Below, piece after piece: positions 23,133-63,533 of a stretch of 64,000 nucleotides of DNA. Numbering within the stretch: the first letter of the stretch is position 1; each line of letters starts with the position of its first letter. Origin of the DNA: an uncultured Chthonomonadaceae bacterium (GTDB taxonomy: Bacteria; Armatimonadota; Chthonomonadetes; Chthonomonadales; Chthonomonadaceae); assembly GCA_963817895.1 (NCBI GenBank), contig CAWFQB010000004.1:1-64000 (forward strand), in the 5' to 3' direction. A program made the position numbers and the translations under genes. The notes under the pieces were generated by a model, which was not told the origin of the DNA, did not search any database, and worked only from the letters and a program-made list of their open reading frames with translations.

Positions 23133-23696
23133 TCAGGAGCGTATCCGTTGCTCTTGCAGCGTCTCCGGCTCTTGGGTAGTAACATAGCGGGAAACATCTT
23201 GTTGTTCCTGTGCAGGTTCGTTGCTGACGTGTACCAGACTGTCAGACGTGGGTACCTGCACTGTATTCGCATGGCCTGATGAGGCGCGCAGCAATTGCTC
23301 GGCAGGTGTCTCCTCGTTTGAGACGGCAGGGCGCAATAGGACATTCTGCTGCTCCGAAACGGGTTCCTCAGAAGCGCGTACCAGTCTGTCCTCATCGGGC
23401 AAGTCGGCTATGTTGACGTGGGAGAGGGGAACGACCTGCTCCATCTGCGCGGCGCGTTTCCTTTTTGCCTGCCCGAACCGGATGAAGCGAAGCGCCATCA
23501 CGGTACAGAACAGGGAGGCCAATAATCCAAATATGCCGAAGCCTGAGAAGGGCAGGGAAACCGCCAGAAACACACATACCGCGACCGTAATGTAGGTGGC
23601 AAGGGTAGATATACTCAGGAGTGTTCGGCTCGTTTGTACGGAAATATACTCTCCCTGGCTTACAATGCGCTTCCCTGTTTTTGGTGGCTGGTTCAT
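23133..23696 (-). CDS. Stand-alone diverged member of the MEPKTGK...LVRA membrane protein family
   Basis: KTGKRIVSQGEY start, 2 TM segments, LVRAS..LLRPA..EQLLRA tail. Confidence 0.75.
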   Translation of the reverse strand: MNQPPKTGKRIVSQGEYISVQTSRTLLSISTLATYITVAVCVFLAVSLPFSGFGIFGLLASLFCTVMALRFIRFGQAKRKRAAQMEQVVPLSHVNIADLPDEDRLVRASEEPVSEQQNVLLRPAVSNEETPAEQLLRASSGHANTVQVPTSDSLVHVSNEPAQEQQDVSRYVTTQEPETLQEQRIRS

Positions 23697-33745: not shown

Positions 33746-34662
33746 CTATGAACTCGGACGCAACAACTGCTCCGTCTGAACGTCCTGTGTACCTGTTGTC
33801 GCCCGGAGCAAGGTATCCGTTGCAGCAGAGGAAGCATCGGCAGCCCGCAGCAGCGTTTGACTGCTGCGTTGTTCCTCGGTGCGCAGTTGCAACGCTGGCA
33901 AGCACTGATTTGCTGCCTCCTGTATGCGCTTTTCTCCCGCTGACCCTGCTTCACGCTTTGCCAATCGCTCTACCACGGATAGCGCTTTGCTGTCTCCTAC
34001 TTGCTCGAAGGCTTGAAGAATAGCGATCCGTATATCAATGGCGCTGTTCCTGGCAGGTTGAAACAGATAGCGCACATCTTTGAACAGAGGGTTTTCGACG
34101 GGCAGGCTGAGGATGTGGCAGAGTTTGGCGCGTTGTGCGTCATTGAGCAGGGCGGCATCACTGGCTTGCAGGCGCGGTAACACAGAGATGAGCGCATCTT
34201 GGGCGATCTCACGGGTTTTGAGGTCATCGAGTTTCAGAGCATCAATCAATCGAGCCAATGGAACGCACATCGTATTGCTTTGCCACAGTCGCCGTCAAAC
34301 GGCGTCGGCGCTGACGATGCCTGCGAGCCGAGGAAGGCTCCACATGGCGAGCAGAGACAAACCGCAACGAAGCCAACAATAAAGGCAGGGGAGGCAAGAG
34401 CGGTAGCGGCGTATTTATGCAACATAAACACTGCCATCAGGAAGAACAACTCAAAAGCAATGATGGCACGCCACGAATGGCGTTGAAATTGCTTTGCTTC
34501 CTGGCTGAGAACGGCATGAACATCCTCTCCTTGCTCGACGACAGTGGACGCTTCCCCAATGCTTTTCACCGTTTTTTCTGTTGGACTTTGCCGAGGCATA
34601 AGGGCATTCAGTGTCTCGGTGGAGGGGGTAGCTTCTTCGGATTGCAGAAAGCGTTGTTCCAT
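33746..34662 (-). CDS. Membrane/HEAT-like helical protein with triple LLR[AP] tail (frameshift ~34300)
   Basis: TM segments, AILQAFEQVGDSKAL, TLLRAA..TLLRAT..EQLLRPS. Confidence 0.6.
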
Positions 34663-34667
34663 ATCTT

Positions 34668-35459
34668 TTATGACCGGGTACAGGGCAGAGTGGGTTCGAT
34701 TAAGGAACGGTGCTGCTGAAATGCCTGCCACTCTGCGCGCCAATGGGTGAGGTGGCCTTCGGTAATCATTTTCTGACAGCCGGTGTCTCCCATCTTTGCT
34801 CGTGTTTCCAGCCAGTCTCCCAGAAAGCGCAACACTTCTTCAACCATATCCAGCAGTTCCAGTGTTGCCTCTATCCCATAAGCCGCACAGAATAAATGCA
34901 GGCGGCGACTGCCTGATCGCACGTCGGCAAGCGCTAACTCCCGCAGATCGCTGTGGAAAGTTAGGGGAACGAACCAGTAAGCCGCGTACGCGACATCACG
35001 CAAACGCGGCCCCGGCCCTGCCATGTCGAAGTCAATAACAGCGTAAGGAGTGCCGTCTGAACACACCAGATTGTAGGGTGCGAAATCGTTGTGGCAGATT
35101 ACTTCATGTCGCGCAGCATCCGGGTAGACGAACTGCCAGCAGGCTTGCGGAGGCGGCACAAAGTCTACTGTGGCGTCATGGTAGACGCGCAGCAGGCGGG
35201 CCGCTGCAACTAACGCATCTTCCCCTTGCCACAGATATGGCATAAATCCAACCTCGCCGGGAAGATACGACAACATCTCGCGTTCTTGATTGTCTACGCC
35301 GAGAAAGCGCGGACACCCAGCAAAGCCTTGTGCTAGTAGATGCAGAAGCAGGCTGTGCGTGGTGGAACTGCATGGGTGCTGTGCCCGCCGCACCGTTTCG
35401 TTGTTCCTCACGACCAGAGGATTGACATTCCCACCTGCAAGCGGCACTTCCTCGTTCAT
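34668..35459 (-). CDS. APH-like phosphotransferase
   Basis: LAGGNV, CHNDFAPYN..IDFD. Confidence 0.85.
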   Translation of the reverse strand: MNEEVPLAGGNVNPLVVRNNETVRRAQHPCSSTTHSLLLHLLAQGFAGCPRFLGVDNQEREMLSYLPGEVGFMPYLWQGEDALVAAARLLRVYHDATVDFVPPPQACWQFVYPDAARHEVICHNDFAPYNLVCSDGTPYAVIDFDMAGPGPRLRDVAYAAYWFVPLTFHSDLRELALADVRSGSRRLHLFCAAYGIEATLELLDMVEEVLRFLGDWLETRAKMGDTGCQKMITEGHLTHWRAEWQAFQQHRSLIEPTLPCTRS

Positions 35460-40663: not shown

Positions 40664-41110
40664 TTACTCCGGCCCATTCACCGCCCGCACTAATTGCTCC
40701 TCATGCCTCTCCTGCCCTTCTGCGGCGGCTCTCAGCAACACAGCCTTTTGTGCCTGCGTCGGTGCCGAAGAAGCGCGAACAAGAGAACCGGGAGCGGGAA
40801 GGTGGGCGGTGTTGGCGCGGGTGAGAGGAACGACATCTTCCACCGTCGCAAATTTTCTGAAACTGGTCTTCATTCCTTTGTAGAAGCAGAAGGTCACTAC
40901 GCTGGACTCAACCGCATATAACGCACGATCTGAATGGAAGGTATAGCGGAGGTCACAGAAAAAATCCAATGCCGAGATGACAACATCTCCTCCGAATTCG
41001 ATGAGCATAAAGCCGCATATTACTGTCAAACAAGCCAGGCTGATGCGTGTAGCCTGTATCCGCAGATACTTCCCCCTGCTTACAATCCGCTTCCCCGTCT
41101 TCGGCTCCAT
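40664..41110 (-). CDS. MEPKTGK...LVRA family protein
   Basis: MEPKTGKRIVSRGKY; PLTRANTAHLP..SLVRASS..VLLRAA..EQLVRA. Confidence 0.85.
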   Translation of the reverse strand: MEPKTGKRIVSRGKYLRIQATRISLACLTVICGFMLIEFGGDVVISALDFFCDLRYTFHSDRALYAVESSVVTFCFYKGMKTSFRKFATVEDVVPLTRANTAHLPAPGSLVRASSAPTQAQKAVLLRAAAEGQERHEEQLVRAVNGPE

Positions 41111-41150
41111 CCCTGCGCCTCTTTCTTCTGCTTTATCCATTTTGCCCCGG

Positions 41151-46449: not shown

Positions 46450-46863
46450 CTATTCTTGTTCCACAGACGCCCGTACCAACTGCTCAGGCGGTGTCTCCAC
46501 CCCTTCTGCGGCGGCGCGGAGAAGGACGGATTCCTGCGCCTGCGTCGGTTCTGATGACGCGCGAACAAGAGAATCGTGCGCGGGCAGGTGAGAGATAGTG
46601 GCAAGTTGTACGTTATTGCGCTCACAATAATCTTGCGTAAAGCGGTACAGCGTGAGCCAGGGCGCTTGCGTCTTCTTTCGTAAGAGCGACACTAGACCCA
46701 ACAATGTCGGTAGGTGTTCTTTGTCCGATGACGCTTGTAGTTCTTCTGCCAATATGGTTTCAAAAACTTGGTGCCAGTCAATATGGTATCTCTTGCGTAC
46801 TAACAGGGATGGTATTTCGCTTGGCTTATTAGTTTCAGGTTCGCTACCCGTCGTCGGCTCCAT
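46450..46863 (-). CDS. MEPKTGK...LVRA family protein (soluble variable region)
   Basis: MEPTTG; HLPAHDSLVRASSEP..VLLRAA..EQLVRA. Confidence 0.82.
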   Translation of the reverse strand: MEPTTGSEPETNKPSEIPSLLVRKRYHIDWHQVFETILAEELQASSDKEHLPTLLGLVSLLRKKTQAPWLTLYRFTQDYCERNNVQLATISHLPAHDSLVRASSEPTQAQESVLLRAAAEGVETPPEQLVRASVEQE

Positions 46864-48216: not shown

Positions 48217-48633
48217 TTACTCTTTGGCTCCGGCATGTTGGAGAAGGCTGATTACTGCCTTAACGTCTTTAGTGCGTTGGCTGGCAGGGTAGTTGTGTAA
48301 ACCTACCCACCTTATAGGCAAATTGTACTTCGCGAGTTCTAAGGCTGAACTATCAGCAGGATTTTGTCGGCTGACAGTGTTGAGCCACAACCGCCAACTA
48401 GGGGTACTCACATAATAGTCTGAGAACCATAATCCCCGCGCATTTGCACCGGCTCCCTGTTGGAGCAATCGTGAAACGGCAGGAGGATCGGGAAATAAAA
48501 TGGCAGCAATCAACGCTTGGTTCAACTTTGCTTGTCGCCATGCCTGCCACGTCAATACAGCAGGTACAGCCATCAGTATCACGAGCAGCCCGCAAACAAG
48601 TAAAGTCAAACGCAAAAATCGGTGTTTCTTCAT
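48217..48633 (-). CDS. Membrane-anchored ankyrin-like protein
   Basis: TM, RQAKLNQALIAAI..LLQQGAGANAR, LLQHAGAKE. Confidence 0.75.
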   Translation of the reverse strand: MKKHRFLRLTLLVCGLLVILMAVPAVLTWQAWRQAKLNQALIAAILFPDPPAVSRLLQQGAGANARGLWFSDYYVSTPSWRLWLNTVSRQNPADSSALELAKYNLPIRWVGLHNYPASQRTKDVKAVISLLQHAGAKE

Positions 48634-49121
48634 ACTTTCCTCTGCCCTTCCACCGCCCGTACCAATTCCTCCTCATGCCTATCCTGCCCTTCTGCGGCGG
48701 CTCTCAGTAAAACGGCCTGCTGTGCCTGCATCGGCTCGGAAGAAGCGCGTACCAGGCTGTCAGGAGCAGGAAGGTCAGCGGTATTGAAGCGGGTGAGAGG
48801 AACGCCAAGATTAATCTGGTTAGCCCTGTTTTCTGCGGCTTTGTAGGCGCGAATGGTTGCTCGCAAAGGGGTTTTCATCAGCATCAATAAATGGGAAGTC
48901 GTTTGGTGGCAGGGCGCATCTTGAGCATATAGCATTCTCGGAAAGTGTCTTATAAGGCCGTCTAAGATAGATAATATGATGAGACTTGGCAACAACACTA
49001 TTACCTGACATACCACCACAATGCAATGAAAAATGCACAAAGCCATCCAAGCCTCGCGAAGGAACATTCGCCGTACATACTCCCCTTTACTCACAATCTT
49101 CTTACCCGTCGTCGGCTCCAT
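48630..49121 (-). CDS. MEPKTGK...LVRA family protein
   Basis: MEPTTGKKIVSKGEY; PLTRFNTADLPAPDSLVRASSEP..VLLRAA..EELVRA. Confidence 0.85.
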   Translation of the reverse strand: MEPTTGKKIVSKGEYVRRMFLREAWMALCIFHCIVVVCQVIVLLPSLIILSILDGLIRHFPRMLYAQDAPCHQTTSHLLMLMKTPLRATIRAYKAAENRANQINLGVPLTRFNTADLPAPDSLVRASSEPMQAQQAVLLRAAAEGQDRHEEELVRAVEGQRKV

Positions 49122-50235: not shown

Positions 50236-50721
50236 TCCTCCTGCCCTTCCACAGCCCGCACCAACTGCTCAGGCGGCGTCTCGTGTCCCTGGGCGGCGGC
50301 GCGGAGGAGGACGGACTGCTGCGTTCTGTTGCGGTACCGAAGACGCGCGTACCAGACTGTCAGAGGCGGGAAGTTCGGCGGTGTTAGCGCGGGTGAGGGG
50401 CTGTAAGTCCCTAATAACAATTCTACTTTTATGACTTTCTCGCCACAGAACACGAAGGGTATAGCCAAGTGGCCCCAATAAGAAAAGACACCAAAAAAAA
50501 GCCATCATTGCATGTGTAATCGTAGGAACATATCTGACGTTATAACGCATCAATCCGCTCTGTTCCTGTGCGTCTAAGGCGCAGGCGGAGGGAATGTTTA
50601 CCAGTAACAACACGATGCCGAGGCCGCAAACCAAAACGCTGCTACATAGAAATAATGAGAGTGACTGCGCCTTAACATATTCGCCCTTGCTCACAATCCG
50701 CTTGCCCATCTTTCGCTCCAT
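50232..50721 (-). CDS. MEPKTGK...LVRA family protein (frameshift ~50325)
   Basis: MERKMGKRIVSKGEY; PLTRANTAELPASDSLVRASS; shifted SVLLRAA..EQLVRAVEGQEE. Confidence 0.82.
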
Positions 50722-50739
50722 CCCTGCGCCTCCTTCTCT

Positions 50740-51186
50740 CTACTCCTGTCCATTCACCGCCCGCACCAATTCCTCCGATGGTGTCTGACTTCCCTCTGAG
50801 GCGGCACGGAGCAATATGGTTTGTTGTACCTGAACCGGCTCCGAAGAAGCGCGAACAAGGCTGTCCGCGCCGGGTAGGTCGGCAGTGTTGGAGCGGGTGA
50901 GAGGGAGGCCCGAATCTGTTTCTTTCGCTTCTTTTACTGCACCTACGCCGAAGTAGAGAAGCGCAACGGATAAACCACCCATGAACAAGATTATAAACAC
51001 AAGAAGCGGTAACTCCGACCATTTGAAGCGCACAAGTCCCATGCCAAACAAACCACAGGTGCAGACGAAACAAAACCCTCCGATTAGAAAAACAATTACG
51101 CCGAAGGAAGATAAGGCCAACTTACTTCCAAGATTGACGGCGTACCTGCCTTTACTCACGATCTGTTTACCCGTCTTCTGTTCCAT
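50740..51186 (-). CDS. MEPKTGK...LVRA family protein (first in array)
   Basis: MEQKTGKQIVSKGRY; PLTRSNTADLPGADSLVRASSEP..ILLRAA..EELVRA. Confidence 0.85.
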   Translation of the reverse strand: MEQKTGKQIVSKGRYAVNLGSKLALSSFGVIVFLIGGFCFVCTCGLFGMGLVRFKWSELPLLVFIILFMGGLSVALLYFGVGAVKEAKETDSGLPLTRSNTADLPGADSLVRASSEPVQVQQTILLRAASEGSQTPSEELVRAVNGQE

Positions 51187-51288
51187 CTTTACGCCTTTTG
51201 TTACTCTGCATGTCTGCCATTTCAGCATATTACAACTTCGAGGCTAAGAGCGTTTAGAAAAAGTAAAATCCTGCGTTTCTATTCGGCC

Positions 51289-55218: not shown

Positions 55219-55248
55219 GGCATGGGAGAGAAATTTCTCTCCCATGCC
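55219..55248. repeat. Perfect 30-bp palindrome
   Basis: GGCATGGGAGAGAAA|TTTCTCTCCCATGCC. Confidence 0.85.
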
Positions 55249-55435: not shown

Positions 55436-58400
55436 TTATTGATGTGACTTCTGTATTTCTGTTGCTCTCTCCATACCGACAATTTGCGCCAGTCGCTCAT
55501 TCGCCACCGCCAAAACCTGTTCTGCCGTCGTTATACCCTCGCGCATTAGCGACATGTACTCACCGCGCGTCAACGTCAGGGGAAGGTTGAGCAGGCCGAG
55601 AGCGGCAGCAGGAATGCCGACCTCCAACTGCTTCAAGAGCATGTCCACGTCTTGAGCATTCGCGGGTACGACAATATGAACTAAGCAGGCGACCTCATGG
55701 GCGGCACGCAGGTGATAGCGTGTGTTATCCGCGAAGCGCCGAATGTCCCCGTGACTGGTCGCGCCGAACCACTGATTGGAAGTGTAGCGGCTCTCGATTT
55801 CGTCCATGTTCACACCGTCTATCCAATCCGCTAAGATGCAGGCGCGCTTACACCGCTTGATATAATCACCTTCCTGTGCCCGTTGCTGGTATAGCGTTAC
55901 AATGTCCCTGCCATAGCGAACCGCAGCCCATTGCGGACAAAATGCCTCCTTTTTGCTGCCTTTGAGTGTAGGTGTATAACCGCCGTCTGATTCAGGAAGG
56001 TTCTGCACCAGCGCCATCAGACGCTCGTGAGTCAGACTATCGGGTGAGATTGTACGCAACAATTGTATCAGTCGCACGCATGAAGAATAGGCCAGGGTCG
56101 AACGACCACAGGCGCGACCAATTGGCGTCAGTTGTACGAATGCACCATCCTGTTCCACCAAGCCCCATGTCAGCATTTCATCCAGCAGAATGTTCAATCG
56201 CCCTGCAAGCGTGGCCTTCCATTCAGGATGGCGGCGTATGGCCTGGAAGCCCCCAAATGTGCTGGCGAGCAACGTCGTAATCTGGTCGCGTGAAACGCGG
56301 GCAACCTGAGCCAGCAGACGCAGCGCCCACGTTTCTACCGCCTCCACCTCAAACGACGATTTCAACGGTTCGGGGTGGCCCTGCACGTATTTGCGGAAAA
56401 GTGCATCTCGCTGGTATGCGTTCTCGGCATAAAGTAAGGATTGTCCTTCCTCTTGGAAACCCAGTCTGCCTGCACGCCCCGCCATGTTACGGTATTCTGC
56501 CACTGTGTAGTCGCGCTCGTCCTCGCCAACAAAGCGGTGATCAGCCAAGATTACAACGGAAGCGGGGGTATTGATGCCTGCTGCAACAGTTGTCGTTGCT
56601 GAAAGAACGCGCACCTTGCTTTGTGGGTCGCGATAGGCACGCTCTACAAGAGAGCGCTCCTCACGATTCAAGTTCGTATTGTGAAAAGCCGTTCCCCCTC
56701 GCAAGCACTCGCGCAATGCAGTGGAGTCTGTGGACTGGTCGGTAGCGGGTAATTGGGCAATTACTTCAGTGGCGGCTGGTAGTCCAACCCCACCCGCTTC
56801 CTGCCCTTCCGCAAGATATTTGGCGCAAGACACGGACTTGCTCCGCATGTTGCGGAAGATAATTACCTTATGGTGCGCGTCGTTCATCAACTGGCGCACC
56901 AGTGGTACGATCACATCCTGCGCGCTTGGTTCTTTGCGACGCTGGTGAATGTTCTGACGCGGAACCAATTGCTTGACCTGGGAATTACCTTCCTCGTCTT
57001 GGAATTGGCATACACCATCATGGTCAAGGACACCTTCAACCAGTTTTACGGGTCGCCTGTCCGTCACCAAAGCCTCGCAGCCCAACCATTCATGGAAGGA
57101 GTTCAAATCTCCAATGACAGCAGACAGCGCCACAATTTGCGGTTGAATACCTCGTTCACGGGCGGCGATTAGGAAAGTCAAGAGCAGTTCGACTATGATG
57201 CCACGCTTCGGCTCGCACACAAATTGTGCCTCATCTAGCACGACCAACCCGATCTGTGACAAGGTAGTAGGATTCGAGACCGCCAGCGACAGGAACATTT
57301 CGTAAGTCATGCAGGCAAGATCGTACTTGCCGCGCGCGAAAGCGGTTGCCTGGTCAACGTAATCGCCTGTGCAGCGGATTACGCGCAGTCCCAGTTCCGT
57401 CCCGTAGAGTGCATCGAACTGGTCGTACTTCTCGCTTGTTAGGGCCTTGTACGGCAGTAGAAATACGGCTTTACGTCCTTCGGTAATGGCACACACAGCA
57501 GCCATCTCCCCAATCATGGTCTTACCCGACGAGGTGGGCGCGACTATGAGCAGCGACCTTCCATCCAGTACGCGGTAGTCATTGATAGCCTGCTGTTGCA
57601 GACTATTTAGCCCAGTAAGGAAACGGTCGGCCCAAGCCCGGAGAACAGGTTCAGGTAAACCAAATGCTGCCAACTCTTTGATTGCCCCTCCAACTCTCGC
57701 GCCGTAAAGTTCTGGAAACGCCTGTGCAAATATTGGGCCAGGTCGCAAGGGTGGCAGTGTCATGCCGCCCTCCACGAGACCTTGATAGAGCATGGGAGTC
57801 TGTGTAACACCCAAGCGCGCGGATTCGGCGCGCACACGATCCATCACGGCGCTCATTGCAGCCTGGACATTGATGACATCGGAGAAGGCACACAGCGCAT
57901 CAAGCAGGGCTTTTGGTAAACAGGCCATGTCGCGTTACAGGATGCTCATAGGCCGCCTCGTTTGTGTTCGCAGCGGAAATCAAAATACGGCCTCGCCCCT
58001 CCACAAGTACATCGAGCGGCATTTCGATGTCGCGCGGTATCGGCTCGTCATCCTCAAAGACACGGGCGGTCGCACCGCCCGAAAAGCAGCAGTCGAGCAG
58101 GATTAGTACGAACCGAGCCTGCGTTGCGCAAAACAAATCGCCGAGTTCACCCATCGAGAGGGATGTTTTGGCAACTTGGCTGGCGTCAGTGTCGTGCGCG
58201 AGCAAGCGGTGACTACGTGAGCCGTGCCCTGCGAATGAGACGATTACAGTGTCCTCTGGGCCTGCTGCACCCAGTGTCTCTTGCAGGGCGCTACGTATTG
58301 AGTCCTTCGTTGCCTGATCGTCCACGAGTAGCCGTGCCTGAATGCCAGGAATGCTATCGGAGAACAATGCCCAGAGCGCAGTTGCATCCCGCCGTGCGCC

Positions 58401-58466
58401 ACTCAACTCGCGAATGTGGTCATCACGGTATTTGTTTATCCCGATGAAACTTGCCAAAACTGCCAT
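55436..58466 (-). CDS. Caspase-like (peptidase C14) protease fused to Ski2/Hel308-type SF2 helicase (~1009 aa after removing one base at 57911-57914)
   Basis: IGINKY, FAGHG, LDCCFSG, HGLFTK|ALLDAL join; APTSSGKT, LPYKAL, DEAQ, LSA, AFHN, TTTVAAGINTPA, NMAGRAGR. Confidence 0.88.
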
Positions 58467-58499
58467 CACTATCCATCTTTCTGCCCCAATCTAGGCACA

Positions 58500-58895
58500 T
58501 CACTGATCGGAGGTGATTGTATCTCCCGGATCGAGGTCTTTCACATCCATCTTGCAAACTGCTGCCAATTGCTTTAGCACGTCCGCCTCTGCCTGACTGC
58601 TGGCGCTCTTGGAGCGAATGTGAATGGTTTTGGAGGAGCCGTCCGCGTTTTGCGTCTGAATGCTGATTTCGGATTCATTACGTGTAGTGTGGCGCGTGAT
58701 CCAAAGCGCCAAAGCGCGCAGAGCCATGCCTGATGCTGTGATAATGGCAAGGGCAGTGGGAACATCGCGTCCGTGAGAGCCTGCTCCCGTCTCTTGCTCA
58801 AAACGCACAGTATCAGGTGGAAGTGTATTTGCGAGAGCAGCACAGTCCTCTTCCGACAGGTCAAGCACTGTGAGTGTACGAAGCACTGGTTCCAT
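58500..58895 (-). CDS. Small EACC1-like protein
   Basis: AAGGAG RBS; GSHG, hydrophobic helix ending LALWI, beta hairpin ISIQTQNADGSSKTIHI; directly upstream of the caspase. Confidence 0.6.
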   Translation of the reverse strand: MEPVLRTLTVLDLSEEDCAALANTLPPDTVRFEQETGAGSHGRDVPTALAIITASGMALRALALWITRHTTRNESEISIQTQNADGSSKTIHIRSKSASSQAEADVLKQLAAVCKMDVKDLDPGDTITSDQ

Positions 58896-59204
58896 AATCT
58901 TCTCCTTTAAGTTCAAAGCCTCACATAGCGAACAAAATGCTACTAAGATGACGGATGCTGCAAAGAAAAAGTGTCGCACTACACGAAATTATTCTATTGT
59001 TTTTCCTTCCAAACGAAGAAAATGGACAAAATTTCTTTAATTTTTACGTCCGATTAACCAATCAGCCAACTGCGCTTTCAGGCATTAACACCGTATCTCC
59101 ATCCCCCTTGTGCGTTTTTACATTCTCTGGCACGAGCATAGCCTCAAAACGCGCTCGCTACCCTATGTCCCTTCCGGGCAAAAGGCGCAGCCAGGAGAAA
59201 AACA

Positions 59205-60750
59205 ATGCAAGAGGATATAGTTTGTGAGGCTCATGCACTCTACGCCGCAGGATTTAATGTGCTCCCCGTTCAGTTCGCCAGCAAGGAGCCTTATGGTTCC
59301 ACAAGCATCTTGACTACGACTCGTATACATCCGTCGTCCATAGATCACTTATTCACCAGCAGCGGCATCGGCGTTATGATGGGTAGGCTGTCGGGCAATC
59401 TATTTGCCCTCGACTGTGACGACGATGCAACGTTCAAGTATGTCGGTGAGGAGTTGGATGCCCGCCATATTCATGCGTGGATCAGAGCTGGGAATGCGGG
59501 GTGGGCAATACTGGTTGCGCTGTGCCGAAGGAGAGGTGCAAAATGTTAATCAGGGCAAGTTGCAGGTGCTGGGCCACAGCCTTTACTCGGTTGTACCACC
59601 CTCCTGGCATCCCGGTGGTGTGATGTACGAATGGGCGCGACGTGAGGGCCAATTGCCTCCCAGTGTTTCCATTCGGCAACTCGATTTCTTGAAGTTGTCG
59701 CTCGCCGGAGATCAGAAGCCAGGCATCAAGCGCGACAAAACGACCCTCCCGCCTGCGGCCTATCGCGTTCTCGTGGAGGAGGACATCAACGGCTACAAGT
59801 CCAACAGCGAAGCCGAGTATGCCGCCTGTTTGTCGCTGCTTCGTGCGGGATGTCCCGATTTGATGATCCGAACGATCTTCGCTCAGTTCACCCCGCCGCA
59901 TTACGCGAAAAGTCGAGGCCGCTCCTTCGATAAGTACACGTTGGCGTCGGCAAAAGCGTATTTGAAGGCCCAAGACGAAAAACCTGTTGCAAGAGAAGCG
60001 GTGACGAACTGGCACTCATCACATTTTGTTCAGTATGCCGATGCGCGCTCCTGGCCCGGACGCACAGGCAATTCGGACAAGGCTGTATACCTCGCGCTTT
60101 GTCAGAGAATGCGAATGGATAAAGGCGCGCGTGTTTTTCGGGCCTCCATCCGTGAACTCTCTGAACTTGCCAATGTAGGAACGCAAGCGGTTCAGGCTGC
60201 GGTGAAACGTCTGCGAACGGCAAACTTGGTCAAGTACGAGAGCAAGGACGCAGTTTCGGGTGCTGCTTTGTACTCACTTATTGTCCAGCCGGAAATGACA
60301 GCAATCACCACAGTAGGCGAAGCCTACACCCGTGTAGCGGATAGTGTGGTGATTAGTGCTATCCAAGAGGACGCTTTCCATAATCGTGGCCTGGGCAAAT
60401 CGGCTTGTACGATTTGGCGTCTGTTACTCTCCGAGAACCGCGCTTTGACAGGAAAGGAAATCATTCAGGCTACGGGGCGTGTCTACAGCACGGTCAAGCA
60501 GAATTTAGTGAAGTTAGAGGCCGTTGGTTTAGCATGGCAGGAAAATGACGGTTCTCCAAGCCGCTGGTGTGGCGTACCTGCTGATCACGAGCAACTGCAT
60601 GAACTCGCCGTCAAATTAGGAACGCAGGGAAAGGCAGCAGTCCGAAAGGCACGACATGTCGAGGAGCGGCAAAAGAGGGCAAGCGTTATGCTGATAAAAC
60701 AGAAGGAGTGCTTCTTGGCGAGAACTAAAGCGTTGAGTATGGCTGCCTAA
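59205..60750 (+). CDS. Prim-Pol (bifunctional primase-polymerase) replication protein with C-terminal HTH-like domains (frameshift ~59490)
   Basis: GFNVLPV..KEP, GIGV..G..LFALDCD, RGGQYW, VVPPSWHPGG..YEW; SIRELSELA. Confidence 0.8.
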
Positions 60751-62855: not shown

Positions 62856-63533
62856 GTGCAAAACATGGCAGACGTAACTAAAAAGCCCAATGTAGCATTA
62901 GACGCCCAACCAGAATGCCCGGAACAAGAGAACATCGAGTCGTTTGGTCGTTGGGTGAAGGCGTGGCGTGAGTACCGGGGCATTTCCCTCAGTGAGATGG
63001 CGAGGCGTGCGGGTTGGGATGCACAGTTTCAGAATTTGCTAGAAAAGGAAGTCAGAAGAAAAAAGGATGGTAGTCCACCGATGCCTCGTGAGGAGACGGT
63101 CAAAATAGTTGCTCATGTTCTAAATGTGTCAGAGCGTGATGCGCTGTTGGCTGCTGGATATGCGCCTCTTGATCTGCGCCGTGTTTCCTATATATCTGCA
63201 CCTCGACGTTCACCGGAGGGAGGCTTTATTTTCTTCCATATCTCAGACATTGACTTGTCAGACATTCACATTCCATCAACAGAGCACGTAGCAAAGCATC
63301 CGAGCGAAAAACCCGATTCATCTGACGTGGAAGTATTGCACAGACTGGAACAGATGATAGAAGAACTGCGGGGAAGAATAGCGGAATATGATCAACGTTT
63401 TCAGAAGTTAGAGGGAGAACAGAGTATTGGGTACCTTGTTCCACAACAGGATGATCGGGTTTCTCAAGCAACACGGGGTCAGACTAAATCGAAGAAAGTA
63501 TCACAACCTCGGATCGTGCCTGATCCTGAGTGA
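62856..63533 (+). CDS. XRE/Cro-C1 HTH transcriptional regulator
   Basis: FGRWVKAWREYRGISLSEMARRAG..LLE..P.EETV..A..LNV..LLAAGY. Confidence 0.82.
   Translation: MQNMADVTKKPNVALDAQPECPEQENIESFGRWVKAWREYRGISLSEMARRAGWDAQFQNLLEKEVRRKKDGSPPMPREETVKIVAHVLNVSERDALLAAGYAPLDLRRVSYISAPRRSPEGGFIFFHISDIDLSDIHIPSTEHVAKHPSEKPDSSDVEVLHRLEQMIEELRGRIAEYDQRFQKLEGEQSIGYLVPQQDDRVSQATRGQTKSKKVSQPRIVPDPE

Follow-up and report, generated by a model that had tools for sequence, protein, structure and literature searches.

The locus described here lies on the minus strand of a 64,000-nucleotide stretch (the window: contig CAWFQB010000004.1, positions 1 to 64,000) from an uncultured Chthonomonadaceae bacterium, and consists of a small gene followed by a caspase-helicase reading frame that is broken once in this assembly. 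The features, with the evidence on which each was called, are as follows.

55219..55248, minus strand: intrinsic-terminator-like hairpin closing the two-gene unit (13 pairs, 8 of them G-C, and a T-run)
55436..57910, minus strand: rest of the caspase domain and complete Hel308-type SF2 helicase (NF002654, Hel308, Foldseek, PDB profile)
57911..57914: T4 run with one extra base, the frameshift that splits the caspase-helicase fusion in this assembly
57912..58466, minus strand: N-terminal part of a C14 caspase, with the H82/C128 dyad, D28 and D126, and a loop with R146 (Pfam, conservation)
58500..58895, minus strand: EACC1-like small protein of 131 aa, a predicted latent pore (Pfam, Atlas, AF2, conservation)
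58902..58906, minus strand: Shine-Dalgarno-like AGGAG, 6 nt upstream of the small-gene ATG (sequence)
59205..60750, plus strand: divergent prim-pol/HTH replication-type gene, frameshift-split, context only (phrog_1156 primase, Pfam Prim-Pol)

The small gene starts with ATG and is separated by 33 bp from the ATG of the caspase frame at 58466, which runs to a stop at 57902; the open helicase frame extends from 57934 to a stop at 55436. The two-gene operon of the initial annotation, with its spacing, its FAGHG and LDCC motifs and its T4 run, is therefore confirmed in the sequence. The hairpin is a consensus match of a kind that occurs in the region at chance frequency, and a promoter scan of the region also gave a result at chance level. 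The pieces of the prim-pol/HTH gene match phrog_1156 primase (5.5e-7 and 7.8e-5) and Pfam Prim-Pol (5e-4), so that a replication-type gene does adjoin the unit, as had been suggested; the mobile-element setting drawn from it stands only to that extent, however, as no integrase, tRNA or convincing flanking direct repeat was found near the locus. An empty site is not definable, and synteny with the genomes G001 and G002 is poor.

The helicase contains motifs I (APTSSGKT), II (DEAQ) and VI (NMAGRAGR) and, beyond the RecA domains, winged-helix, ratchet and C-terminal helical regions. It matches Pfam DEAD (3.6e-22) and Helicase_C (1.9e-7), as well as the NCBIfam-type models NF002654 (4e-92, residues 82–820) and Hel308 (8e-77), both below the equivalog cut-offs of these Hel308-type models. 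The best Foldseek match is Hel308 (2va8; E 8e-42 over about 770 columns), and in a profile search of the PDB Hel308 (1e-80) is followed by Ski2 (6e-37) and HamB (3e-21). The match to the Hel308/HELQ type is thus full-length, with intact motifs, and the five-domain fold is shared entire with archaeal Hel308/Hjm, human HELQ and the helicase domain of POLQ (TM to target 0.81–0.86), from which the window protein differs in its N-terminal caspase and in belonging to a bacterial, patchily distributed and often mobile family. The original description of a Ski2/Hel308-like helicase with a DEAQ motif is accordingly right as to Hel308 and the motif, whereas the protein is far from both HamB and the RNA helicase Ski2. 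A reading as an RNA helicase was rejected on these E-values and the Foldseek result; membership in Hachiman was likewise rejected, since HamB models reach at best E 1e-29, over the motor domains only, and HamA has no match on either the small gene or the caspase.

In the homologues, the junction motif HG(L/V)(L/F)T..ALL runs on into the helicase in all 14 aligned sequences, and this continuity indicates one surplus base in the window sequence. In one short public contig, from run X1, the sequence is a base shorter at 57911, at a depth of 2 and with 18 bases on the short side, below the 31-base rule of the tool. In this assembly, which is 81% complete, 27 of 114 tested orthologues contain frameshifts, or about one per 4 kb of coding DNA, which corresponds to a chance of about 50% that a 3-kb gene is artefactually broken. 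Because the relatives are uninterrupted, frameshifts affect so many genes and the X1 contig is one base shorter, the break was very probably introduced in assembly, and the intact product predicted on sequence grounds is a caspase-Hel308 fusion of about 1010 aa; the proposal that removing one base from the T4 run joins the two frames is borne out. A genuine split, leaving either a pseudogene or two genes with a truncated, inactive caspase half in this strain, appears very improbable. The break is present in the assembly itself, 9 of the 80 homologous loci are likewise broken or short, and the X1 contig is weak on the counts just given, but the frameshift rate alone makes an artefact commonplace, the adjoining prim-pol gene is also split, and no further lesion was seen in the caspase-helicase, with every motif intact.

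The caspase domain (residues counted from the GTG at 58469) matches Pfam C14 with an E-value of 2.5e-13 and NF047832 with 5.4e-27; for the latter, the 94.7 bits of the split half fall below the cut-off of 140 bits, as do the scores of its relatives P0001 (113.6 bits) and P0008 (99.4 bits). Across 231 sequences, D28 (98%), H82 (99%), D126 and C128 (both 100%) and a basic residue, R or K, at position 146 (about 100%) are conserved, and the C14 protease with an intact His/Cys dyad that had been recognized from the FAGHG and LDCC motifs stands. D28 and D126 are what we take, by metacaspase structures, to be an acidic S1 pocket. The His-Cys dyad and these acidic residues place the domain among Arg/Lys-type C14 peptidases, and the pocket predicts an Arg-type enzyme. 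A preference for basic P1 residues in metacaspase- and orthocaspase-like enzymes is described in PMC8283722.

The small protein consists of a β-α-β unit, a loop ending in H41-G42-R43-D44, a hydrophobic segment (48–66), a β-hairpin and a helix. Its match to Pfam EACC1 (PF19953; E 5.9e-4, 20.2 bits) does not reach the gathering cut-off of 23.6; among the 84 members of its family, 13 match at E ≤ 0.01, the best at 1.8e-6. All ten of the best named matches in the Atlas search are EACC1, and the AF2 model (pLDDT 78.6) has an EACC1-like topology; in a Foldseek comparison of this model with the PDB nothing reached E ≤ 0.001. On its sequence, the product of the small gene is EACC1-like but divergent, and the earlier EACC1 call holds on these lines of evidence, though with a score under the Pfam threshold. 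The 19-mer at 48–66 (KD 1.79, with ASG; at least 1.6 in 83 of 84 members) is, as in EACC1, a lone hydrophobic stretch that includes small residues and has α and β elements on either side. It comes after an acidic site that matches the published cleavage site: residue 44 is acidic in 83 of the 84 members, and D44 aligns by eye with Asp49, the modelled cleavage site of KrEACC1 (Evans et al., bioRxiv 10.1101/2025.11.14.688446). Evans et al. have shown for the KrEACC1-KrAvs12 system that cleavage by the caspase turns EACC1 into a pore, and by analogy the small protein is probably a pore-forming suicide factor. Arg at position 43 is characteristic of the subclade that includes the window's small protein (8 of 84 members; a clade of 7, support 0.86–0.95), and 50 of the 84 have K or R somewhere in the loop. 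Arg43 fits both the acidic S1 pocket and the R-D loop of the enzyme itself, whose IPR-D resembles the HGR-D of the small protein.

The caspase-Hel308 fusion is a widespread family that is enriched beside defence genes. PF00656 is present in 110 of its 120 best listed matches, 64 of 80 fusion loci hold a single ORF of at least 990 aa, and the AF2 model of the whole chain has a pTM of 0.83, all in keeping with the natural fusion originally envisaged. Members are 50–75% identical to the window protein, conserve all catalytic motifs and are annotated only as DEAD/DEAH box helicases; what sets the window fusion apart is its EACC1-like upstream gene and its place in a separate clade of six, recovered in the trees of both domains (support 0.994 and 0.997). 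The fusion occurs in 3 of 401 genomes of the phylum, in neither same-genus genome, and on 17 plasmid records; a viral scan with the caspase gave 2 loci. Fusion loci were recovered by an alignment search, a single-protein helicase search of genome contigs having given none. At E ≤ 1e-10, PADLOC models match 41 of 145 genes neighbouring fusions and 15 of 125 control genes; once generic MADS, kinase and ABC matches are left aside, the numbers are 39 and 6. The idea of defence cargo is thus sustained for the family, while at this locus no further defence gene was recognized by eye. This distribution also bears on a role in DNA damage or repair, in which a Hel308-like fork-processing helicase would carry a regulatory protease and any killing would answer general genome damage instead of phage. 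The closest solved relatives of the helicase are the repair helicases Hel308, Hjm and POLQ, LexA-like genes lie upstream at 3 scanned fusion loci, and Evans et al. have raised stress roles for some EACC1 modules; a patchy, mobile distribution and enrichment beside defence genes are, however, unlike those of housekeeping repair genes, and we regard such a role as improbable.

In EACC1-caspase systems the EACC1 gene as a rule lies immediately 5' of a gene that encodes an N-terminal caspase and a C-terminal part that varies (Kaur et al. 2020, PMC7159879), and this is the arrangement found here across a 33-bp gap; the general statement in the initial annotation that EACC1 genes typically precede caspase-domain proteins is thus a published one. 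Its expectation that the small gene co-occurs with homologous fusions, on the other hand, largely fails at the family level. Relatives of the small gene were found at 0 of 80 fusion loci (76 of them with at least 600 bp upstream; tblastn, Pfam and family profile), none of which belongs to the window fusion's own clade, and in 0 of 50 fusion-bearing genomes, which implies that the fusion needs no such effector. No pattern is apparent in the genes that lie upstream of fusions (DUF2158, DUF2188, AbiE-like, HNH, LexA-like). Apart from the gene described here, four members of the small-gene family were located, and each lies ahead of an unnamed HExxH protein in place of a caspase. The site of one of these four is likewise R-D, and K or R occurs in the loop of 50 of the 84 members, so that R-D does not single out small proteins paired with a caspase. 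Close relatives of the small gene lie on contigs of 5832, 9421 and 28858 bases, and no fusion among the matches listed comes from a contig of any of these lengths. With the small gene as query, a metagenome scan returned a single weak and unrelated locus (L084), viral scans for the small gene and for the HExxH protein gave none, nor did tblastn of plasmids with two small proteins, and no HExxH partner gene was found in this 81%-complete genome. A swap of an Ensifer HExxH gene to an α/β-hydrolase effector was considered and set aside, since what is likely, by eye, the C-terminus of a caspase lies upstream of the hydrolase. P0008, of the fusion clade, and P0123, a relative of the small gene, are each recorded in ENA only, and for each the longest contig is 17009; from this equal figure alone they are probably a second pairing. 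A pairing of small gene and fusion is thus tenable only within a clade or as something that arose recently.

These counts suit an alternative in which the caspase-helicase defends by itself. Triggered by DNA, it would be a protease of broad Arg specificity with host or phage proteins as targets, and the small gene would be a leftover of a pair whose HExxH member has been lost or displaced, its product not being a substrate. Effector-less defensive caspases do exist (Evans et al.), although the E. coli example, a 476-aa protein, was rejected as a member of the fusion family. Such a leftover would nevertheless have to account for the 33-bp spacing, the small gene's own ribosome-binding site and the single terminator, for a gene that is intact and has R-D subclade relatives at 82%, 48% and 45% identity, for the probable pairing of P0123 with P0008, and for a sample of 80 loci that leaves the window's clade out. 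We consider it rather unlikely.

The reading that we favour, at somewhat short of an even chance, is a two-gene abortive-infection module in which the intact fusion of about 1010 aa acts on a latent EACC1-like pore recruited in one clade. By homology to Hel308, the helicase would load on 3' single-stranded or branched DNA, for example phage replication or recombination intermediates. Loading would bring caspase domains together, with the loop after the catalytic Cys being cut at a conserved P-x-x-R/D. The Arg-type protease may then, following the EACC1 precedent, cut the small protein at H-G-R/D (43–44) and so remove an autoinhibitory N-terminal part of about 4.6 kDa, whereupon the C-terminal fragment of about 9.4 kDa would oligomerise in the membrane and kill the infected cell, a step shown for KrEACC1 only. 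The effector would have been recruited in one fusion clade from a family normally paired with the unnamed HExxH protein. More tentatively, a one-protein DNA sensor-caspase may gate the pore directly, in an inflammasome-like helicase-caspase-pore chain, the pore gene having come, by an exchange of proteases, from an unnamed system of EACC1-like protein and HExxH metalloprotease, with its loop retuned to the caspase's own R-D site. The opposite order, in which the small membrane protein senses and activates the caspase and auto-cleavage frees the helicase as effector, was the model first proposed for EACC1 systems, by Kaur et al. 2020, and a conserved basic residue does lie in a flexible loop of the caspase (pLDDT 53–57 in the P0001 model). 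We judge it highly improbable: the R146 loop sits within the caspase fold and not between domains, experiments make EACC1 the substrate and pore (Evans et al.), and the small gene is absent from most fusions.

Compared with known systems, the favoured two-gene module is closest in plan to EACC1-caspase systems, which likewise have a small EACC1 gene 5' of an N-terminal C14 domain (xxDCCFS, the second Cys catalytic), a large C-terminal partner domain, an acidic residue before the hydrophobic helix and a similar predicted topology. It differs in that its Pfam and NCBIfam scores are below cut-off, its small-gene family is mostly HExxH-paired, its S1 pocket predicts Arg whereas the modelled site of KrEACC1 is Asp49, and its C-terminal domain is a Hel308-type helicase instead of STAND, DnaK, EccC or DGR. 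The word "helicase" does not occur in the main text of Evans et al., nor is a helicase among the domains named in section 33 of Kaur et al. 2020. With Hachiman HamAB and the protease-bearing HamMAB (Tuck et al., PMC12799240), in the latter of which helicase, protease and effector are all required for defence, the proposed module would share a helicase of the Ski2 superfamily (SF2) acting ahead of a protease by which a separate, latent effector is unmasked; the window, however, has its caspase fused directly to a helicase far nearer Hel308 than HamB, has no HamA or DUF1837, and has a predicted pore in place of the MBL nuclease of HamMAB. Canu (caspase-nuclease) and caspase/α/β-hydrolase modules, with Arg-Gly cleavage demonstrated for LcHydrolase, also employ a caspase-family protease that activates a neighbouring effector, as proposed here, but lack a helicase sensor and have different effectors.

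The locus looks like a rare case in which a known antiviral death switch has been rewired to respond to a DNA sensor. Caspase-Hel308 fusions are common, and a dedicated EACC1-like substrate, if confirmed, would supply a direct read-out, one cut and one toxic fragment, by which the signal sensed by the helicase, and whether the helicase gates the protease, could be tested. EACC1 pores, linked to STAND proteins that sense protein, would then have a DNA motor as a further kind of sensor. The EACC1-like and HExxH pair points to a protease class without mention in the literature compared. Should both the helicase-caspase-pore chain and the protease swap prove true, a nucleic-acid input and a metalloprotease class would be added to protease-effector modules.

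The layout proposed in the initial annotation was borne out, comprising a small ORF, a 33-bp gap, a C14 peptidase frame, a T4 run and a helicase frame:

58500-58895, minus strand: EACC1-like small ORF, 131 aa, AGGAG 6 nt before the ATG
58466 (start) to 57902 (stop), minus strand: caspase frame, 33-bp gap to the small ORF
57911-57914, plus strand: T4 run, from the sequence
ending at 55436, minus strand: helicase frame, open
55219-55248, 3' of the helicase frame: strong hairpin and T-run, from the sequence

The spacing, ribosome-binding site and terminator of the small gene and the caspase-helicase fusion are compatible with an operon. Pfam assigned C14 to the caspase frame (2.5e-13) and DEAD (3.6e-22) and Helicase_C (1.9e-7) to the helicase frame. 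The NCBIfam model caspase_w_EACC1 scored 94.7 bits against the caspase, missing its cut-off of 140, and two Hel308-type helicase models matched at 4e-92 and 8e-77, both under their cut-offs. PADLOC has no dedicated model for the locus, and returned only a generic caspase match and motor-domain matches to HamB and PDC-M23B.

The proposal that removing one base of the T4 run joins caspase to helicase was confirmed. All 14 aligned homologues read through the junction, and a 151-nt contig of sequencing run X1 corresponds to 57893-58044 without mismatch, with one base missing at 57911; this contig is weak alone because its depth is 2 and it extends just 18 bases on the short side of the missing base. 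The window's own assembly totals 7.48 Mb on 14 contigs and is 81% complete. From 21 stretches of the same-genus genome G001 we drew 247 ORFs with a length of 200 aa or more; 114 have an orthologue in that assembly, and 27 of these show frame changes. With G001 as the sole comparison, the 34 events over 45,421 aa amount to roughly one per 4 kb of coding sequence, a rate against which other split genes in this assembly should be weighed. The adjacent prim-pol gene is also split. Taken together, these observations make an assembly error very likely, and a split that is real in the organism is correspondingly hard to credit.

An AlphaFold2 model of P0001, the nearest intact relative (83% identical to the window's fusion in the caspase, 75% in the helicase), has a pLDDT of 87.3 and a pTM of 0.83, with lowest order in the loop after the catalytic Cys. 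Foldseek placed Hel308/Hjm first (8e-42), POLQ second and HamB at rank 44, and a PDB profile search gave Hel308 at 1e-80, Ski2 at 6e-37 and HamB at 3e-21. Since Hel308 leads both rankings, the helicase is predicted to be a DNA-type Hel308 motor; of the earlier "Ski2/Hel308-like" label the second half stands, whereas Ski2 falls far behind, and the comparison with the Hachiman sensor HamB is not upheld. In 231 caspase domains, H82, C128, D28 and D126 (numbered from the GTG at 58469) are conserved at 98–100%, in agreement with the intact His/Cys dyad described before; we take D28 and D126 to form the S1 pocket, from metacaspase structures. Position 146, within a variable loop, is Arg in 96% and Lys in 4% of these domains, with Asp mostly next. 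Metacaspase-type enzymes favour a basic P1 residue (PMC8283722); we infer that the caspase is of Arg type and processes itself at this loop.

Of 8000 candidates scored against the helicase half, 1907 proteins passed E ≤ 1e-60, and PF00656 is present in 110 of the best 120; with the caspase half, 628 of 5623 candidates were longer proteins that passed E ≤ 1e-30. From 398 matching stretches of GTDB genomes we retained 80 as fusion loci: 64 carry a single ORF spanning 990 aa or more, in 9 it is broken or short, 6 run into a contig end and 1 has no called ORF. The distribution is patchy: the fusion occurs in 3 of 401 genomes of its own phylum, in neither same-genus genome of that set, and on 17 plasmid records. 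Trees of the caspase (0.994) and of the helicase (0.997) agree in grouping the window's fusion with P0001-P0004 and P0008, in a clade to which the 80 loci do not belong. An earlier count of the bare architecture put helicase domains in 12 of 671 bacterial metacaspases (PMC3501461), and three cyanobacterial cases are also in print.

The small protein has three close relatives and 92 matches among 50% representatives, from which an alignment of 84 sequences was made, excluding fragments, fusions and two likely false matches. Its resemblance to EACC1, previously called by eye, gains from the Atlas, where the ten best named matches are all EACC1, from 13 of the 84 members that match EACC1 at E ≤ 0.01, and from its AlphaFold model (beta-alpha-beta, loop, beta, hydrophobic helix, beta hairpin, helix), but the Pfam cut-off is missed (E 5.9e-4, 20.2 bits against 23.6). 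For these reasons the protein probably works like EACC1 while falling short of formal membership. The predicted topology is shared with KrEACC1 (Evans et al., bioRxiv 10.1101/2025.11.14.688446), as is an acidic residue ahead of the hydrophobic segment: position 44, acidic in 83 of 84 members, corresponds by eye to Asp49 of KrEACC1. Arg at position 43 is rare (8 of 84 members); seven of the eight make up the clade of the window's small gene (support 0.86 and 0.95 in two analyses).

Whether the two genes belong together was doubted on distributional grounds. The small-family profile had no match in the 80 fusion loci (76 with at least 600 bp upstream), Pfam EACC1 none among 108 small ORFs upstream of fusions, and no family member occurs in 50 fusion-bearing genomes; by phylum, the family was found in one genome of 401 in the own phylum (the window's), in one of 381 in a second (G829) and in none of 301 in a third. 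The expected co-occurrence with homologous fusions thus failed to appear, in loci that include none from the window's clade. The four other located relatives of the small gene instead precede an HExxH protein:

L115:6001-8173 (G829:C1:930001-932173): small gene and HExxH pair
L117:1597-3821: small gene and HExxH pair
L118:1589-3641: small gene and HExxH pair
L119:1621-3764: small gene and HExxH pair

In G829 the small gene is followed after 28 bp by the gene of a 589-aa protein, which has HEFIH, a distal EGLA and no match in Pfam or NCBIfam; as a query this protein found 7 plasmid records, and in 3 of the 4 fetched the gene immediately upstream belongs to the small family (E 5e-20 to 7e-17). 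The four HExxH proteins (about 560–630 aa, distal E-G-L-A, 26–33% identity across records) come from Acidobacteriota-phylum, Streptomyces and Rhizobium records, and their Atlas clusters hold about 100 hypothetical proteins. We take HExxH with a distal Glu to be of gluzincin type. From G829 and the plasmid records, therefore, the usual partner of the small gene is a putative gluzincin-type metalloprotease, and the pair is a candidate metalloprotease-gated pore system; one such small gene also encodes R-D at the predicted cleavage site. The window's genome has no HExxH partner and G829 no fusion. In Ensifer adhaerens (L116:1096-3713) an HExxH gene without the small gene lies 3' of an alpha/beta-hydrolase that resembles the hydrolase described by Evans et al. 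as protease-activated, with a likely caspase C-terminus before the hydrolase and a Vsr-like gene and methyltransferase downstream (by eye).

That the fusion stands alone beside an orphan neighbour is accordingly a serious though minority reading, favoured by these absences and by the HExxH partner. The pairing is still supported because the 80 loci lie outside the window's clade, the spacing, ribosome-binding site and terminator are operon-like, and the clade member P0008 and the R-D small protein P0123 may be a second pair: both are ENA-only, each is on two contigs at cluster level, and their longest contigs have the same length, 17009 bases.

Neighbours of the fusions were sampled as a random 145 of 161 ORFs from 61 loci, 15 near-duplicate loci being dropped. 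PADLOC models (E ≤ 1e-10) matched 41 of the 145 and 15 of 125 ORFs drawn at random from the single control genome G001; with generic MADS, kinase and ABC matches removed, the figures are 39 and 6. RM systems, AbiE, QatA, ThsA, NucC-like and E1-E2 genes are among the neighbours. Inspection by eye showed no further defence gene up to about 20 kb from the window locus. A repair or stress role seems improbable. The claimed mobile-element replication module is present in part, since a prim-pol/HTH gene adjoins, but no integrase, tRNA or att-like repeat was found around the locus:

59205-60750: prim-pol/HTH gene, split, upstream
62856-63533: XRE-type regulator, upstream

Three small unknown ORFs lie between them, and the whole resembles a remnant mobile module without integrase. 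Elsewhere, in ten loci (L040, L049, L056, L060, L063, L069, L074, L077, L078 and L080), the start of the fusion is directly preceded by a DUF2158 (YodC-like) gene, and most of its products have a basic-small tail (VTRG, VSRA, VMRG) that could be an Arg-type protease site. In a recurring betaproteobacterial and gammaproteobacterial element the fusion has an AbiEi-like/nucleotidyltransferase-like pair on one side and a QatA-led operon on the other (L042, L043, L047, L052, L054, L066, L067, L073, L079), and DUF2188 and/or LexA-like S24 genes repeatedly lie just upstream of the fusion (L008, L013, L017, L025, L037, L072, L075). Separately, small membrane proteins ending in LVRASSEP are dispersed in the window (23136-23696, 33749-34743, 40667-41140, 46450-46863, 48630-49121, 50269-51228), often beside short ankyrin-like genes, with paralogues in genomes G001 and G002.

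In the mechanism we favour, binding of abnormal DNA by the helicase would bring the caspase domains together, processing at the R-D loop would follow, and the small protein would then be cut by the protease at R43/D44, which would free a pore-forming fragment of 9.4 kDa (computed mass). We hold this whole chain tentatively, at a little under even confidence; the reverse order of small protein, caspase and helicase appears very unlikely. A fuller version, in which this helicase-caspase-pore chain would also have arisen by a protease swap of the small gene from an HExxH partner to the caspase, is less likely than not. Experimental precedent, by analogy, exists for the last step only: KrAvs12 cuts KrEACC1 near Asp49, and the resulting C-terminal piece is toxic, makes liposomes leak and tolerates a shift of its ends (Evans et al., bioRxiv 10.1101/2025.11.14.688446). 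For the order predicted here, with a helicase acting ahead of an effector that a protease gates, HamMAB is a precedent (Tuck et al., PMC12799240). Helicase and metalloprotease terms do not occur in the main text of Evans et al., whose figures or supplementary PDF may show such a fusion. Searches for Hel308 with caspase in phage defence and for peptidase C14 with helicase in antiphage systems found nothing, and one for caspase, helicase and Ski2 in anti-phage work returned only an unrelated review. The locus is real and its parts are of known kinds; these literature searches turned up no earlier case of their combination.
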